The notes under the pieces are model-generated. The model was given only the letters and a program-made list of their open reading frames with translations, was not told the DNA's origin and ran no database searches. A stretch of 64,000 bases of DNA from Alphaproteobacteria bacterium (GTDB lineage: Bacteria; Pseudomonadota; Alphaproteobacteria; CADEGL01), in NCBI GenBank assembly GCA_963666705.2, contig CAXXKO010000016.1:95300-159299 (forward strand), written 5' to 3'. The position numbers and the translations under genes were made by a program. The first letter of the stretch is position 1. Each line of letters begins with the position of its first letter. Positions 3,201-59,557 of this stretch are shown one piece after another.

Positions 3201-4581
3201 TGTACAGACCGGAGACATAGCTGACAGGTGTTCGGAGACATGGTTGACACTTTCCCGGTCCCTGGCGGATTGGGGAAGGATTGGATCATGGTCTGGCGGG
3301 AGCGGTTGGTGATGGATCTGCGAGAGGAGTTTGTGGGTCTGGCGGGAAGCGCGGGGGCGAACCGGCGTGAGCTGTGCCGTCGGTTCGGGATCAGCGCCCA
3401 GACCGGCTACAAATGGCTGCGGCGGCACGCGGCCGAGGGGCGGGAGGGCTTGGCCGACCGCTCGCGGCGGCCGCGGACGAGCCCGGGGCGTGTGGCGCCG
3501 GTGCTCGAGGCGGCGGTGCTCGCGGTGCGGGCCGACAGCAACCAGGCGTGGGGCGGCCGCAAGATCCGGCGGCGGCTCCAGGACCTCGGCCACGCGGCGG
3601 TGCCGAGCGCCAGTACGATCACCGAGATCCTGCGCCGCCACGACAAGCTGGACGCGGCGGCGGCCGGGCCGGCGCGCTGGTGCCGGTTCGAGCGCGCCGG
3701 CCCGAACGAGCTGTGGCAGATGGACTTCAAGGGCCACTTCGCGACCGTGGCCGGGCGCTGCCATCCCTTGACGGTGCTCGACGACCACGCGCGCTACGCG
3801 CTCGGGCTCGCCGCCTGCGCCGACGAGCGCGCGGAGACGGTGCGCGAGCGGCTGAGCGCCATCTTCCGGCGCTACGGGCTGCCCGAGGCGATGCTGATGG
3901 ACAACGGCGCGCCGTGGGGCGACGCCGGCGGCCAGCCCTACACCGTGCTCACCGTGTGGCTGATGCGGCTCGGCATCCGCATCGCCCACTGCCGCCCCTA
4001 CCATCCCCAGACCCAAGGCAAGGACGAGCGCTTCCACCGCACATTGGCGGCCGAGGTCCTGGCCGGGCGCCGCTTCGCCGATCTCGGCGAGTGCCAGGGC
4101 GCATTCTCGCGCTGGCGCCACGTCTACAACCACCAGCGCCCGCACGAGGCCCTCGATCTCGACGTGCCGGCGCGCCGCTACCGCCCCAGCGCGGTCGCCT
4201 TCCCGGAGACGCCGCCCGAGATCGCATACGGTCCCGGCGATAGGGTGCGCAAGGTCCAGAGCGGCGGCATGGTCAGCTTCCAGGGCCGCCAGTTCCGCAT
4301 CTCCAAGGCGTTCAAGGGACAGCCCATCGCCCTGTGCCCGAGCGCCGTCGACGGCGTGTTCACGGTGCGCTTCGGCGCCAACACCATCGCCCATATCGAC
4401 TTCCGAAAAGCGCCCGCCGAGACACGAGCCGCCTGTGGATTTGATGGATATCGCTGGCGCGATACCCACAACCCCACAGGCACAACAACCGCAAAACAGG
4501 ATTGATCTGGTATTGAAGTGCAGCATCCGAGGTGTCAACCATGTCCCCGAACACCCGTCAACCATGTCCCCGGTCTATACA
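3201..4581 (+). mobile_element. IS481-family insertion sequence
   Basis: TGT...ACA termini; 50-bp terminal inverted repeats (44/50 by manual comparison) with internally repeated GACATGGTTGAC-like units; flanked by CCA on both sides. Confidence 0.9.
3288..4505 (+). CDS. IS481-family DDE transposase
   Basis: HTH N-terminus, PNELWQMDFKG, LDDHARY, MDNG, HPQTQGKDERFHRTL, YNHQRPHEAL. Confidence 0.92.
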   Translation: MVWRERLVMDLREEFVGLAGSAGANRRELCRRFGISAQTGYKWLRRHAAEGREGLADRSRRPRTSPGRVAPVLEAAVLAVRADSNQAWGGRKIRRRLQDLGHAAVPSASTITEILRRHDKLDAAAAGPARWCRFERAGPNELWQMDFKGHFATVAGRCHPLTVLDDHARYALGLAACADERAETVRERLSAIFRRYGLPEAMLMDNGAPWGDAGGQPYTVLTVWLMRLGIRIAHCRPYHPQTQGKDERFHRTLAAEVLAGRRFADLGECQGAFSRWRHVYNHQRPHEALDLDVPARRYRPSAVAFPETPPEIAYGPGDRVRKVQSGGMVSFQGRQFRISKAFKGQPIALCPSAVDGVFTVRFGANTIAHIDFRKAPAETRAACGFDGYRWRDTHNPTGTTTAKQD

Positions 4582-13810: not shown

Positions 13811-14773
13811 ATGAGCAGACCCGAACCGGGTGAGGTCAGTCGCGTCGCCGTCATCGGCACCGGCACCATCGGCGCGAGCTGGGCCGGCTACTTCCTGGCC
13901 CGCGGCATGAGCGTGGCGGCCACCGACCCGGCACCCAACGCCGAGGAGCGCCTGTTCGCCTATGTCGACCGCGCCTGGCCCGTGCTCGAGGAGCTCGGCC
14001 TGGTGGTGGACGGCGCCGCCATCGATCGTCTGGTCTTCGAGCCCTCGGTCCGGAAGGCGGTGCGGGCGGCCGAGTTCGTGCAGGAGAACGGCCCGGAGCT
14101 CGAGGACGCCAAGACCGATCTGATCGCCGAGATCGACGCCGCCTGCCCGCGCGACACCGTCATCGCCTCCAGCACCTCGGCCCTGCTCATGACGCCGCTC
14201 CAGTCCAAGTGCCGGCACCCGGAGCGCTGCGTCCTCGCGCACCCCTTCAACCCACCGCACCTGATCCCCCTGGTCGAGCTCTCCGGCGGCAAGGCGACGG
14301 ACCCAGCGGTGCTCGACTGGGCGCACGCTTTCTACGAGGGAATCGGGCGCTCGCCCATCCGGTTGGGGCGCGAGGTCTTCGGCCACGTCGCCAACCGCCT
14401 GCAGTACGTGGTGTGGAACGAGGCCGTGCGGCTGGTGCTGGACGGGGTGGCCAGCGTCGCCGACGTGGAACGCGCGATGCGCGACGGCCCCGGCCTGCGC
14501 TGGGCGTTCATGGGGCCGTTCGGCACCCTCAACCTGACGGGCGGCGAGGGCGGGCTCGCGCGGACCTTCGAGATGTTCCGCGCCCGCGACCGTGGCAATA
14601 CCGACCGCGCCGCGCGCCGCACGCTCACGCCCGAGCAGGAGCAGGTGATGATCGACGGCATCGACGAGGCGAACGGTGGCCGGGATATCGCCGAGATCAT
14701 CCGCGCCCGGGACGCACGCCTCGTCGGCCTCCTCAAGATGCGTGCGGCCTTGGATGCGGAGGATGCCGGCTAA
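13811..14773 (+). CDS. 3-hydroxyacyl-CoA dehydrogenase family (L-carnitine dehydrogenase-like)
   Basis: GTGTIGASW, VQENGPE, SSTS, HPFNPPHLIPLVE, GHVANRLQ, GPGLRWA. Confidence 0.85.
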   Translation: MSRPEPGEVSRVAVIGTGTIGASWAGYFLARGMSVAATDPAPNAEERLFAYVDRAWPVLEELGLVVDGAAIDRLVFEPSVRKAVRAAEFVQENGPELEDAKTDLIAEIDAACPRDTVIASSTSALLMTPLQSKCRHPERCVLAHPFNPPHLIPLVELSGGKATDPAVLDWAHAFYEGIGRSPIRLGREVFGHVANRLQYVVWNEAVRLVLDGVASVADVERAMRDGPGLRWAFMGPFGTLNLTGGEGGLARTFEMFRARDRGNTDRAARRTLTPEQEQVMIDGIDEANGGRDIAEIIRARDARLVGLLKMRAALDAEDAG

Positions 14774-14917
14774 TACCAGCGGCCGATGAGCTCGACTCAT
14801 CGACCGCTGGCAAGCGCGACCGCGCGCCCGAGCTTATGCGAGGTAAGCCAAGGCCGCGGACGCGGCCGCCCGGCGTCTGAGGGAACATGCAACGGGTCAT
14901 TCTTATGGGCCGTTGGT
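14773..14917 (+). repeat. MITE family 1, copy A (ATACCAGCGGCC...GGCCGTTGGT|AT), right end interrupted by IS110
   Basis: Aligns with 40912-41172; terminal inverted repeats; 5' hairpin CCAGCGGCCGATGAG/CTCATCGACCGCTGG; last 2 nt displaced to 16299-16300. Confidence 0.8.
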
Positions 14918-14944
14918 TGTCTAATTCCGGTTCGTTGGTCAAGC

Positions 14945-15140
14945 CCTTCCGGACCCTTGTCTCCACCGGGAACACGGTTGTCTGCGAAGTCTTCCCCGGC
15001 GGGTCCGCCGGGTCGCTTCATGATAGTGCCCTTTGGCTTCGGCCTCCCAAGGTATTAGACGCAATCGCGAACGGCTGTCCGCCTTGCAGCCAAGCGAGCG
15101 GGATCGCCTCGGCCATCGTCCCGGCGGGGACGGGTCTTCC
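14945..15140 (-). ncRNA. Putative bridge/seek RNA of the IS1111-type element (boundaries approximate)
   Basis: About 255-nt non-coding region downstream of the recombinase; 5' hairpin CGTCCCCGCCGGGACG; guide-like matches to target (15070-15075, 15051-15057) and donor (15023-15028, 14977-14983). Confidence 0.7.
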
Positions 15141-15174
15141 GCTTCTCGCGGAGCTCTCTCTTCTCCTTATCCAG

Positions 15175-16209
15175 CTATGCCGTGGCGCTCGCCTCCTTTT
15201 CCGGCCAGCGGAAGGCTTCGCCGGTGATCAGCATCCGGTGCAGGATCACCGCCAGCCGGCGCGCCAGCGCCACGCAGGCCTTCTTGTGGCTGGTCCGCCT
15301 CTTGATCCGGCGCGCCCAGTCCTTCAGCGGGTGGGCCCGGCGCACCACCGTCAGCAGGCTGTTGGCGGCCTCGTAGAGCAGCGCCCGCAGCATGGCGTCG
15401 CCGTGTTTCGAGATGCGCCCCGAATAGTCCATCCCACCCGACTGCCAGCGCCGCGACGTGAGCCCCACATAGGCCCCCACCGCGCGCGATTTGGCGAACC
15501 GCTCCGCTTCGCCAATGGTCGCCACATAGGCCAGCGCCGTCACCGGCCCCACCCCCGGTGTGCTCATCAGCAAACGGCAGGCCGGAGAGCCTTTCGCCCG
15601 CCCCACGACCGCCTCGTCCAGCCGCCCGATCTCGCGGCCCAGCGCCGCCGCCGCGGACAGAAGCGGCTCGATCATCACCTTCAGCTCGGGACGCCCCTCC
15701 AACGCCTCGCGGACGCGTCCGGCCAGCTTGCCCGAGCCCTTGGGAAAGCGAAGGCCCAACGACCCCAACAGGCCACGGATCGCGTTCTCCGTATCGCGCC
15801 GCTGGCGCACCAGATGACAGCGCGCCTTGAGAAGTGCCCGCGCCTCTTGCGCCACCTCGATCTTCACCGCCACAGGGCGGCAGAACCCCGTGCGCGCGAT
15901 CTCCGCCAAGAGCTCGGCGTCGTTCGCATCCGTCTTGTTGTGCTGAAGACGCATCACAGCGTTCGCCTGGCGCGCGTCGATCACATCGACCGAGACCCCC
16001 AGCCGGCCCAGCTCCCGCGCCAGCCAGCCACTCAGCGTACCCGTCTCCAGAACGATACGGCCAGGGCACAGACAATGCTCCCGCAAAGCTGCGAACAGCG
16101 CCCCCGGATCGGTCGCAACCTTGCCGCGCGCCAATATCTTTCCCGCCACGTCCTTCACGCAAAACGCCGTCTCTTCCTTCGACACATCAAACCCAACATA
16201 CTCCGTCAT
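15175..16209 (-). CDS. IS110-family (DEDD) recombinase/transposase
   Basis: YVGFDVSK, VLETG, KTDANDA (DEDD tetrad); PGVGPVTA; YVGLT..RWQSG (catalytic Ser region); ALARRLAVILHRML. Confidence 0.93.
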   Translation of the reverse strand: MTEYVGFDVSKEETAFCVKDVAGKILARGKVATDPGALFAALREHCLCPGRIVLETGTLSGWLARELGRLGVSVDVIDARQANAVMRLQHNKTDANDAELLAEIARTGFCRPVAVKIEVAQEARALLKARCHLVRQRRDTENAIRGLLGSLGLRFPKGSGKLAGRVREALEGRPELKVMIEPLLSAAAALGREIGRLDEAVVGRAKGSPACRLLMSTPGVGPVTALAYVATIGEAERFAKSRAVGAYVGLTSRRWQSGGMDYSGRISKHGDAMLRALLYEAANSLLTVVRRAHPLKDWARRIKRRTSHKKACVALARRLAVILHRMLITGEAFRWPEKEASATA

Positions 16210-16294
16210 GGTCACTCTCCTTGGTTTGCCCACTGGGGCGCGTCCTCGCGACCCCGAATCATAGGCCCGGGAGAGTGACCACCGGAATTACGCT

Positions 16295-16744
16295 ATGTAT
16301 AAGGGTTGCATTCGCGCTTCGGTTTCGGGCGCGCTCGCGGCTCTGGCGGTGGCGGGAGCGGCGGCCGGACCTCTCGTCTGTGCCGGAGGGATGGGCGAGG
16401 GCCAGGCGGTCGTCTCGATCGAATTCCCCGGCCCGGCGCCGCTCGGAAGCTGGTGGGCGGCGGTGGCCGAGCCCGCGGCCCCGCGCTACCGCTACACCGT
16501 GCTCGGCATGTGCGGTGAGTTGGCCATGCCCGAGCCATGCCCGGTGGAGATGGTGTTCGACGCCGTCGGCTATCGCGGCATGGCGCTTGCGCCCAGCGCG
16601 GAAGCGGCAGCCGCGGCGGCGGAGCGCAACTGCCATACCGCGATCGAAAAGGACTACGGCGGCCTGCGGAACGAGTTCGCGGTAACGCCACGCTGCGAAG
16701 TTCGTCAGGTGGTTCGGTGCGACCCCGGATCGGCCGCCGATTGA
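16295..16744 (+). CDS. Hypothetical, probably exported Cys-containing protein
   Basis: Hydrophobic Ala-rich N-terminus and several Cys; the ATG lies within the IS end, so the start is uncertain. Confidence 0.45.
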   Translation: MYKGCIRASVSGALAALAVAGAAAGPLVCAGGMGEGQAVVSIEFPGPAPLGSWWAAVAEPAAPRYRYTVLGMCGELAMPEPCPVEMVFDAVGYRGMALAPSAEAAAAAAERNCHTAIEKDYGGLRNEFAVTPRCEVRQVVRCDPGSAAD

Positions 16745-39745: not shown

Positions 39746-40912
39746 ATGACCGACCTCGACCAGCTCCTGAGCGCCATCACGGGAATCGCGGCGGCGCCGT
39801 TCGAGCAGGCCGTGATCCCGCCGCCCGCGCACTACACCTCCCCGGCGCTGACCCGGCTCGAGGAAGAGCGCATCTTCCGCGCCGAGTGGCAGTGCATCGG
39901 GCGCACGGCGGACATCCCCGCCGTGGGCGACTACATCACCTACACCCATTGCGGCCAGCCCGTCTTCTGCATCCGCGGCAAGGGCGGCGCCGTCCGCACC
40001 TTCGCCAACGTCTGCCGCCACCGCATGATGGAGCTGCTGGCGGGCAGCGGCACGGCGCGGCGCATCGTCTGCCCCTACCATGGCTGGGTCTACGACCTCT
40101 CGGGCCAGCTTTCGGGCGCCCCCCACGAGTCCTACTTCACCGATTTCGACAAGGCGGCCATCTGCCTGCCCGAGATCCGCACCGAGGTCTGGCAGGGCTT
40201 CGTCTTCATCACCCTCAACCCCGAGGCCGACAGCATTGCGGCGCGGGCGCGGCCCCTCGACGACCTGATCGACCGTTTCGGGATGGCGGACTACGTGCCC
40301 ATCGTCACCGAGGACAATGTCTGGGACACGAACTGGAAGCTCCTCACCGAAAACTACATGGAGAGCTACCACCTGCCCTTCATCCACAAGGGCACCGTGG
40401 GCGGCTTCTTCCCGGTCGAGGACTGCACCTTCCCGGAGGAGGCGCCGGCCCACTTCACCTATTCGACCTTCACCAAGAGCGAGGGCGCCGCCTACGGCCG
40501 CGCCCATCCCGACAACACCCGGCTCGAGGGCGAGTGGCGCCATACCAACATCCTGCCGACCATCTTCCCGAGCCACATGTTCACCCTCGCCCCCGATTAC
40601 ATGTGGTACCTCTCCCTCGCCCCCCAGGGCCCGGGCCAGGTGCGCATCCGCTACGGCGCGTCCCTGGCGCCCGAGGTGGTCGCAGCCATGGCGGACCGGG
40701 AGGCGGAGACGGCGGCGGCGGCGGCCTTCCTCGACGCGGTCAACAACGAGGACCGCCACGTGGTCGAGGGCGCCTACCGCGGCGCATGCGCCCCCCTTAC
40801 CGCCCCCGGCCCCATCCACCCGCTGGAGCGCGCCATCCACCACTTCATCATCTACCTGGCCGCCCGCTTGACCGGCGACGGCGGCAAGCGCGCGCTGGCG
40901 GCGGCGGAGTGA
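39746..40912 (+). CDS. Rieske non-heme iron oxygenase alpha subunit (choline/betaine monooxygenase-like)
   Basis: NVCRHR...CPYHGW Rieske motif; NWKL..ENYMESYHLPFIH and a distal ED for mononuclear iron. Confidence 0.9.
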   Translation: MTDLDQLLSAITGIAAAPFEQAVIPPPAHYTSPALTRLEEERIFRAEWQCIGRTADIPAVGDYITYTHCGQPVFCIRGKGGAVRTFANVCRHRMMELLAGSGTARRIVCPYHGWVYDLSGQLSGAPHESYFTDFDKAAICLPEIRTEVWQGFVFITLNPEADSIAARARPLDDLIDRFGMADYVPIVTEDNVWDTNWKLLTENYMESYHLPFIHKGTVGGFFPVEDCTFPEEAPAHFTYSTFTKSEGAAYGRAHPDNTRLEGEWRHTNILPTIFPSHMFTLAPDYMWYLSLAPQGPGQVRIRYGASLAPEVVAAMADREAETAAAAAFLDAVNNEDRHVVEGAYRGACAPLTAPGPIHPLERAIHHFIIYLAARLTGDGGKRALAAAE

Positions 40913-41172
40913 TACCAGCGGCCGATGAGCTTGACTCATCGACCGCTGGCAAGCGCCGCGTGGGCGCCCGAGCATATGCGAGGCCAGCCTTGGCGGCGCT
41001 TGAGCGAAAGAAGTGCCTTAGCGGCGCTTGAGCGAAAGAAGTGCCTTAGCGGCGCTTGAGCGAAAGAAGTGCCTTAGCGGCGCTTGAGCGATATGAGAAG
41101 CCAAGGGCGCGGATGCGCCCGCCCGGCGCTTGAGGGAACATACAACGGGTCGTTCTTATGGGCCGTTGGTAT
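40912..41172 (+). repeat. MITE family 1, copy B, intact, with internal 28-bp tandem units
   Basis: ATACCAGCGGCC...GGCCGTTGGTAT ends; about 3.7 copies of GCCTTAGCGGCGCTTGAGCGAAAGAAGT starting at 40987, 41015, 41043, 41071. Confidence 0.85.
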
Positions 41173-41215
41173 GAGTGCGGGAGAGGCGCGCGGCCCGTTT
41201 CGCTGACCGCCGGCG

Positions 41216-58380: not shown

Positions 58381-59557
58381 ATACCAGTGAGCCTATGAAA
58401 TCACCTTCATGATCCATGGATAGGCGCAGAGGGTTCGCATACGATCCGGTTCTGCGATGAGGTCGATCCATGCTTGGCAACAGGCGTCGATGATGGCCTC
58501 GGTGTCGTCGAGGACGCGGAGCGATAGGAAGCGTTCGCGTAGGTAGAGCCAAACCCGCTCGACGGGGTTGAGTTCGGGACTGTAAGGCGGCAACAGCGCC
58601 AAGGTGACGTTGTCGGGGACGGTGAGGGCGCGCTCGTCGTGCCAACCGGCGCCGTCGCACATCATGACGGCGTGCGCATCCTGGTCCAGGGTATCGGCGA
58701 AGTGTGCGAGAAACAGGTCCATGACCTTGGCGTTGACGCTCGGCATCACCAGGGTGACGTCGTCGCCGGTGTCCGGGCGCACGGCGGAGAAGATGTAGGC
58801 CCACTGGTAGCCGATTTGACGCGTCCCGGGGGCACGCTCGCCCCTGCGCCACCACCGGTGACACACCCGGCCCTTGTTGCCGACGCGCGCTTCATCCTGA
58901 AACCACAGCTGTAGGCGCTTGTCGGGATGCGCCGCGGCGGTCGCCTTCAGGATGTCGCGAAGCCCCCTTTTTTGAAGCGCTCCTGCGCTTCGGCGTCCCT
59001 TCGCGGGTGGCTCGGGCGCGCCTTCTGGCGGGAAAATCCCATCCGCCGTAGAACCCGGGTCATGCTCGAGGGGTGGTAGGTCTTGGCGAAGCGCTCCTCC
59101 AGCCAGCGGCACAGATCGGCCCGGGTCCAGGCGCAAACCCCGTCGCGCTCAGGCTCCGGCCCGGCGATGATGACCGCCGCCAGCGCCGCTTCCTCGTCTG
59201 CCGTCAGCCGCCGCGGCGAGTAGCCCTTTGGACGGTCGTGAAGCCCCTCCAATCCCTTTGCATTGTAACGAACAACCGCGTCGCGAAGCGTTTGGCGATC
59301 CATCCCCGCAAGCCGCGCGGCATCAGCCCAGGGCATCTCCTCCAAAGCATTCGCGATCCCATAGGCCCGCGCCGCCGCTCGACCGTACGATTCCACGCGA
59401 GCCCAGCGCCGAAGCTCCAAAGGCGTCAAATCATCCCGTATCTTGAGTGCTGATCCCATGACATCCCCCACATCTGGTGGGAGACCATAGAATCACAATC
59501 CGCCATCATCCGCCATCAATGAATATCCCGAGAGTCAATTCAGGCGCTCACTGGTAT
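58381..59557 (-). mobile_element. IS630-family insertion sequence
   Basis: ATACCAGTGAGC...GCTCACTGGTAT termini in a TA-rich context; two-ORF transposase. Confidence 0.88.
58393..59459 (-). CDS. IS630 transposase, orfA/orfB joined by a probable programmed -1 frameshift
   Basis: orfA HTH (58947-59459); orfB WFQDEAR, DGAGWH, LPPYSPELNPVERVW; slippery AAAAAAGGGGG at 58963-58973. Confidence 0.88.

Follow-up and report, generated by a model that had tools for sequence, protein, structure and literature searches.

A multicopy IS1111-group element whose own RNA probably directs its insertion to miniature-transposon ends in an alphaproteobacterial genome

Where does a mobile element land when closely similar copies of it are spread over one genome, and can its choice of site be read from the element itself? 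The question is raised by an element of the IS1111 group (IS110 family) at positions 14918-16298, minus strand, of a 64,000-nucleotide (nt) stretch of DNA from an alphaproteobacterium (assembly GCA_963666705.2, contig CAXXKO010000016.1, positions 95,300 to 159,299), referred to below as the window. An original prediction, made from the letters of the window, had proposed that this element carries an RNA with short guides aimed at the end of a miniature inverted-repeat transposable element (MITE). We examined the anatomy and copy number of the element, its insertion sites, the fold of its RNA and the covariation between guides and targets, all of which could be observed directly. We conclude, with a probability of roughly 0.85, that this is an active multicopy element whose own RNA directs its insertion mainly to miniature-transposon ends.

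The whole element measures 1381 base pairs (bp) with one copy of its 2-nt core counted; the core reads GT in the orientation of the window and AC in that of the element. Its boundaries were set by an intact terminus at 41161-41172 and by 19 full-length copies (97-98% identity) lying in differing flanks. As had been predicted, excision of 14918-16298 brings GGCCGTTGGT next to ATAAGG and yields the intact terminus GGCCGTTGGTAT found at 41161-41172, and GT is present at both junctions. The bases adjoining the core differ between the left and right junctions, and insertion is site- and orientation-specific without a longer duplication. Subterminal inverted repeats that match each other perfectly over 10 bp and are kept by homologs were found near the RNA-proximal end (TAATTCCGGT, 14922-14931) and near the transposase-proximal end (ACCGGAATTA, 16281-16290). 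The terminal extensions, counted without the core, are 6 nt (ATAGCG) and 4 nt (GACA), compared with the usual 7 (or 6) on the left and 3 on the right in IS1111 elements (PMC11187229), though placement of the core alters these figures. IS1111-group subterminal repeats are described as 7-17 bp (PMC11208160) or usually 11-13 bp (PMC11187229).

Between the repeats lies a transposase gene (15175-16209, minus strand; 344 amino acids) that starts with an ATG at 16209 preceded by AAGGAG and leaves 257 nt of non-coding DNA after its stop codon (14918-15174) and 89 nt before its ATG. The frame is open in all 19 full-length copies, and an alternative frame of 352 codons is open from a GTG at 16233. The product matched the Pfam families PF01548, DEDD_Tnp_IS110 (expectation value, E, 8.7e-19; residues 13-156) and PF02371, Transposase_20 (E 3.7e-23; residues 219-294), and gave distant matches to the solved transposases of ISCro4 (9t56, E 2.6e-15) and IS621 (8wt6, E 6.5e-14). 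Its length is within the 330-350-residue range, and the motif GL-P----S(t)G reads GLTSRRWQSG, with S replacing P. The transposase shares 28% identity with that of IS4321, the only classical member of the IS1111 family that was compared. By testable structural criteria the element is thus assigned to the IS1111 group of the IS110 family; the Pfam domains, the open frames and the consensus fold described below agree with the earlier proposal of an intact IS1111-type element with its RNA encoded 3' of the transposase gene.

We next asked where the copies sit. The assembly consists of 30 contigs, is 93.5% complete and contains many fragments of the element besides the 19 full-length copies. A search by the end sequences returned 37 left and 28 right junctions. 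GT preceded the element in 34 of the left junctions (GGT in 32 of those 34) and was found at all 28 right ones, where the flank after the core follows the pattern A-T-n-A-G (A in 28/28 and G in 24/28, with n being T in 16, A in 8, C in 3 and G in 1). Eight left junctions lie at the GGGCCGTTGGT end of a miniature transposon and nine at the other-end type (CATCG...GGT). Miniature-transposon ends, adjoined by 17/37 left junctions, are therefore the main landing sites, as the original prediction had it. Four further left junctions were found at another repeated sequence (...GCAGCTTGGT), eight inside the element itself and eight elsewhere, three of these last being nested-insertion artefacts or a diverged copy. 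Two extra insertions at GGGCCGTTGGT-type ends are masked by a second element nested near the end. The used sites, among them unrelated sequences and positions inside the element, resemble one another over no more than about 10 bp around the core.

Imprecise insertion was considered for two degenerate left ends (C16:218075 and C17:236831) and rejected, as these are really copies interrupted near the end by two other elements. Two copies of the studied element (C16:216428 and C25:19553) harbour, just a few bases inward of the RNA-proximal end, a separate, abundant element of about 1640 bp (G000:C16:216428-218074 and some 30 further copies).

The target can be written (C/T)TGGT|ATnAG on the strength of these junctions. 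It is made up of the terminal GGTA of an IS630-like miniature transposon, the TNA duplication of that transposon and a G. Because it spans tip, duplication and flanking base, the site exists only after the miniature transposon has inserted. The interrupted miniature transposon of the window (145 bp) runs from 14774 (TACCAG...) to 14917 (...GTTGGT), has its last base at 16299 and is bordered by a 3-bp duplication, TAA, at 14771-14773 and 16300-16302; the second occurrence of TAATACC noted earlier was located here, at 14771-14777. An intact copy of the same miniature transposon (259 bp) occupies 40913-41171 between TGA duplications (40910-40912 and 41172-41174), and its end TTGGTATGAG (41167-41176) is a perfect, unoccupied target. 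The ends TACCAGCGGCCGATGAG and TACCAACGGCCCATAAG match at 14/17 positions, counted by eye. Small and geneless, with terminal inverted repeats, a duplication and many copies, the landing site has the sequence features of a MITE. The genome holds 41 ends of the interrupted-copy type and 87 of the other-end type, and GGTATnAG occurs 257 times, mostly at the ends of repeated elements. A G after the TNA was found in 24/28 occupied sites compared with 34/80 empty GGTAT-n-A-x ends (Fisher P 6e-5).

A related full-size element of 1172 bp is present at about 58388-59557 (G000:C16:153685-154857), with similar ends (TACCAGTGAGC...), a TTA duplication and some 30 additional copies. DDE_3 and helix-turn-helix domains (Pfam) are encoded by its two overlapping frames, and we therefore read it as IS630-like; the same domains speak against an IS5-type origin of the miniature transposon. 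Both miniature transposons of the window sit on the apparent stop codon of an upstream frame (TAA 14771-14773, TGA 40910-40912), a position that fits the TNA target preference, and the duplication preserves the stop codon. The intact copy contains, at 40990-41090, about four tandem units of about 29 bp (GCGGCGCTTGAGCGAAAGAAGTGCCTTAG) that are absent from the interrupted copy (14774-14917).

To find relatives, we scanned one genome per species and obtained 29 loci in about 14 genomes, with transposases 66-81% identical to that of the window. Related loci that include an element end have essentially identical ends and subterminal repeats in differing flanks; the ends of L065, L066 and L078 differ by one or two bases. 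We aligned 21 non-coding regions, six of them variants within this genome and 15 from other lineages, and folded the alignment with RNAalifold. The result was a structured RNA core at 14962-15128 on the minus strand, matched with 182.6 bits by the covariance model built from it (R1). The fold consists of a target-binding loop and then a donor-binding loop, each split by a stem-loop, inside a long-range stem (15125-15120 with 14970-14965); the covariation scan below supports the same order, which is the one originally claimed. Standard pairs fill 96.8% of the cells and 12/33 pairs are changed on both sides (trimmed 19-row alignment). None of 500 shuffled alignments reached any of five measures, and sliding the partners by 1-3 columns left 30-45% paired.

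Within the target loop, an inner stem of TGCAA (15088-15084) and TTGCG (15064-15060), spanning 15060-15088 on the minus strand, encloses the hairpin CGGAC-AGCC-GTTCG, whose arms lie at 15081-15077 and 15072-15068. This hairpin is helix 6, with 4/4 pairs changed on both sides; for helix 5 the figure is 2/5. A CCCG/TGGG pair lies outside the loop. The first loop had originally been drawn as closed by CAAGG/CCTTG around a hairpin CGCGATTGCG, a structure that does not stand, as the consensus fold of the 21 sequences pairs these bases otherwise. R1 detected the non-coding region of a Sinorhizobium element (28.8 bits, E 1.4e-5) and weakly that of a Ruegeria element (14.9 bits, E 0.0027). Folded as a single sequence, the 257-nt region gave an uninformative result (z -2.1). 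When the non-coding region was searched as DNA against 11 same-family genomes, nothing usable was obtained; there was a single 24-nt match. Between the stop codon and the RNA core, a stem-loop TCCGC-GAGAA-GCGGA (15137-15153, minus strand) recurs in homologs with other sequence, a possible processing or 5'-end element.

Which bases of the RNA follow the target? The minus-strand motifs named in the original prediction were all located (GCCGTT 15075-15070, TAATACC 15057-15051, CACTAT 15028-15023, AGACAAC 14983-14977 and TTGACC 14942-14937). We then ran a blind scan, in which every 6-column window of the RNA alignment was compared in both senses with every insertion-site position and judged against 200 lineage permutations, using as input only the 15 lineages from other genomes. 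Seventeen windows reached at least 60% matches, and those with a permutation signal were confined to two diagonals, at the two halves of the target loop. On the first, columns 50-58 are complementary to the target from the core outward (positions +9 to +1; z 4.0-5.5, 0/200 permutations). On the second, columns 105-111 run in the same sense as target positions -5 to the core; three windows gave z of about 3.0-3.3 (0-2/200) and the two outermost were weaker (z 2.1-2.7, 3-6/200). Examples of guide and flank pairs are TTAAGGTGT with ACACCTTAA (L073), ACTGGTGT with ACACCAGT (L066), TTCCGT with ACGGAA (L089) and ACTTGGT with ACCAAGT (L061).

In the window copy, the first diagonal corresponds to CTCGCTTGGC (15098-15089, minus strand), the 10 nt directly 5' of the conserved TGCAA, which complements the core and the window-left flank. 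This is the only diagonal complementary to the top strand (z 5.0-5.5, 0/200) and had been missed by eye. The second diagonal corresponds to CTAATAC (15058-15052, minus strand), in the same sense as the window-right flank read on the minus strand plus the core; the earlier choice of TAATACC as a target guide was accordingly sound. The two columns after this guide (112-113, positions 15051-15050) read AT in 8/15 lineages, like the element's own end; L066 matches four bases there (ATGG) and the window copy reads CT. These bases may be a contact made after strand exchange.

The left target guide had previously been sought in GCCGTT (15075-15070), which would read the miniature transposon directly from a loop closed by CAAGG/CCTTG. 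The 6-nt identity of this motif with the commonest target, GGGCCGTTGGT, is real, it adjoins the 4-5 nt read by the other guide, and L063 has a comparable 6-nt match (AACCGT in the hairpin, ACGGTT in the flank). The same bases, however, form the loop and the 3' arm of helix 6, the hairpin with compensatory changes at all its pairs, and they gave no diagonal in the blind scan. In 7/19 copies of this genome the motif is GTCGTT, and sites of the other-end type, which place GCCG one base farther from the core, are used all the same. By our own estimate (five 6-mers, about 250 positions), about 0.3 right-sense hits of this kind are expected by chance. We consider a guiding role for GCCGTT improbable; an auxiliary contact may exist, because the gappy loop columns could hide shifted matches from the scan.

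Recognition of the target by the transposase protein, for instance of palindromic or inverted-repeat miniature-transposon DNA, would make the non-coding region a 3' untranslated or regulatory one. Many targets are indeed structured repeat ends, and the RNA is known here from sequence alone. Against protein recognition, the used sites have so little in common beyond the bases around the core, both halves of the target loop covary with the flanks in a set of lineages whose transposases share 66-81% identity, and published relatives need the RNA for movement (PMC11187229). We regard it as very improbable.

The donor loop was then compared with the element's own ends. In its 5' half, CACTATCA (15028-15021, minus strand) complements the transposase-proximal end ATAGCG and contains the CACTAT proposed earlier, which we kept as a probable donor guide; end changes are compensated in L066 (CCAT, end ATGG) and L078 (TTAT, end ATAA). 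The second donor guide, AGACAAC (14983-14977, minus strand), was likewise kept: it reproduces the final 5 nt of the RNA-proximal end followed by the core. Guide and end are invariant in 21/21 aligned sequences, so that its support is conservation without covariation. An outward TTGACC (14937-14942, minus strand), present as TTGAC in 20/21 sequences and always 20 nt from the element end, is a possible -35 box of a promoter that would be completed when the ends are joined in the circle, its -10 box being weak. A junction promoter has been reported for IS1111 relatives (PMC11187229). A promoter scan of the integrated copy found no complete promoter, and two terminator-like hairpins lie on the wrong strand.

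For RNA expression, binding, circle formation and catalysis we rely on analogy with the family. In the mechanism that we propose on this basis, the DEDD transposase would excise the element as a circle whose ends meet at the 2-nt core AC, and the RNA from the 257-bp region after the gene would bridge the circle junction and the chromosomal target. In the target loop, CTCGCTTGGC would pair with one strand on one side of the core and CTAATAC with the other strand on the other side; in the donor loop, CACTATCA and AGACAAC would read the joined ends likewise. The target site would arise mainly when IS630-like elements or their miniature derivatives insert with a TNA duplication before a G. Two RNA libraries yielded contigs over 14915-15143 and over parts of the gene, a coverage that is not proof of transcription.

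The copies within this genome are not uniform in their guides. Alignment of the 19 full-length copies gave 49 columns with a minor allele in at least two copies; 10 of these fall in the 43-nt target loop (P 1e-6), and 5 of the 10 first-guide positions vary (P 1e-5). Six alleles of the first target guide, CCCGCCTGGT and TTCGTTTGGT among them, coexist with two of the second, CTGATAC being carried by 10/19 copies. Several alleles suit particular miniature-transposon end variants: CCCGCCTGGT fits GCCGCCTGGT at 9/10 positions, and TTCGCTTGGT fits GCAGCTTGGT over 7 nt. Seven of the 49 informative columns fall in the stretch 16231-16269, before the transposase gene, making this stretch denser in them than the coding region.

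The self-insertions have their left junctions at element positions 136 (three), 96 (four) and 73 (one). Position 136 lies in the DNA encoding CTAATAC, the junction reading CCCAAGGT|ATTAGAC. One structure is fully nested (C26:427949-430710) and the others consist of an end fragment followed by a full copy; each end fragment directly precedes a further copy of the element, except for a lone 1-136 fragment in C29. We infer from this arrangement that the element nested into a resident copy and that homologous deletion followed. At C4:30527-32480, end fragments of 96, 253 and 218 nt are followed by a nearly full copy in one orientation, an array that could reflect repeated nesting or an assembly problem. 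In L085 (a Roseibium chromosome record) there are three tandem partial units, at locus positions 3800, 4955 and 6110 (spacing 1155 bp), each ending at the RNA-proximal end, with the same internal sequence after it; the junction misfits the first target guide of L085. Partial-copy arrays thus recur in the clade. The 1172-bp element, in turn, sits in the TTA of the guide-coding DNA GGTATTAG in three copies of the studied element (C29:48825-49997, C24:140623-141790 and C30:231926-233096), and a similar interrupted copy was found at C9:303926-306758.

Could the resemblance between guides and targets be a by-product of imprecise excision or nested insertions, with no guiding role? Nested insertions abound in the genome, and the guide DNA forms a hot spot for both the element and the IS630-like element. 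Yet in 15 other lineages the guide segments occupy constant places in a conserved fold and vary in step with the targets, and a captured flank would be expected at the ends of the element, not 130-180 nt inside it. We give this possibility scarcely any credence. A different idea, that the element actively re-aims itself within one genome and that its guide-coding DNA imitates the target and so draws both the element and the IS630-like element, is tentative and in our judgement somewhat doubtful.

Several observations weigh against guidance by the RNA as we describe it. At the commonest target, GGGCCGTTGGT, the contiguous match to the first guide extends only 4 bases from the core C, or 5 bases when the base opposite the core A is included, whichever of the six first-guide alleles is compared. 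Opposite the core A the window copy has C, and homologs have T, A or G; in the donor guide of the window copy, C stands opposite the core C, and the end change of L065 is uncompensated in the first donor guide. The guide allele of a copy showed no correlation with the flank of that same copy, a result that RNAs acting in trans would produce but that lends no support. CTAATAC does not account for the self-insertions at positions 96 and 73, which agree with the first guide or with neither of the two. An Rfam search of the region (E up to 1) returned only a chance microRNA match outside the element, and R1 missed the non-coding region of IS4321. Finally, no contig joins 16298 to 14918 and none skips the element among the contigs of four runs, which break at repeats.

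How does the element compare with known systems? Similar to the IS1111 seekRNA elements ISEc11, ISKpn4, ISPst6 and ISPa11 (Siddiquee et al. 2024, PMC11187229), it has a DEDD transposase of 330-350 amino acids, subterminal repeats, a long non-coding region after the gene, and repeated sequences as targets. Short matches to both target strands overlap at the core, and the top-strand complement comes 5', which is the published IS1111 guide order. Unlike them, it has a different target and is known from its sequence alone. As in the IS621 bridge RNA (Durrant et al. 2024, PMC11208160; Hiraizumi et al. 2024), one RNA holds target and donor internal loops, each predicted to read both strands around a shared 2-nt core. 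In contrast to IS621, the RNA follows the gene rather than preceding it, both loops have their guides in the opposite order, long subterminal repeats are present, and the first core nucleotide often faces an unpaired base.

Landing in the repeat of another mobile element is also shared with the founding element IS1111, of which 20/21 copies are in QMITE2 (PMC5896051). The difference is that the site here consists of the last 4 nt of the miniature transposon, the TNA duplication and one flanking base, and that both miniature-transposon ends are used. ISPpu9 of Pseudomonas putida (PMC12288879) is likewise an IS110-family element, in its case within repeated palindromes, with extra partial modules of the RNA-proximal end at other places in its genome; those modules were explained by separate circles, whereas the end fragments described here fit nesting and homologous deletion. 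The novelty suggested in the original prediction was thus overstated, since both MITE targeting by IS1111 and the guide order had been published (PMC5896051, PMC11187229). What is new is the example and not the mechanism, which was described in 2024.

The locus is a well-resolved natural example of RNA-guided recombinases and leaves the knowledge of the family mechanism unchanged. It belongs to a clade without a close named relative, the best plasmid-borne transposase (Ruegeria) being only 53% identical. The guide positions could be mapped by covariation, and about 15 relatives sufficed to place them. By-eye short matches can mislead: three of the four guides first proposed held, and the fourth turned out to be a structural hairpin. 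Of note are the coexistence of guide alleles in one genome and the finding that guide-coding DNA is itself a target. If the element does re-aim itself in this way, such insertions would truncate the RNA gene and leave arrays of end fragments, a built-in brake on RNA-guided transposons, and the two transposon families would form a three-way interplay with their miniature derivatives.

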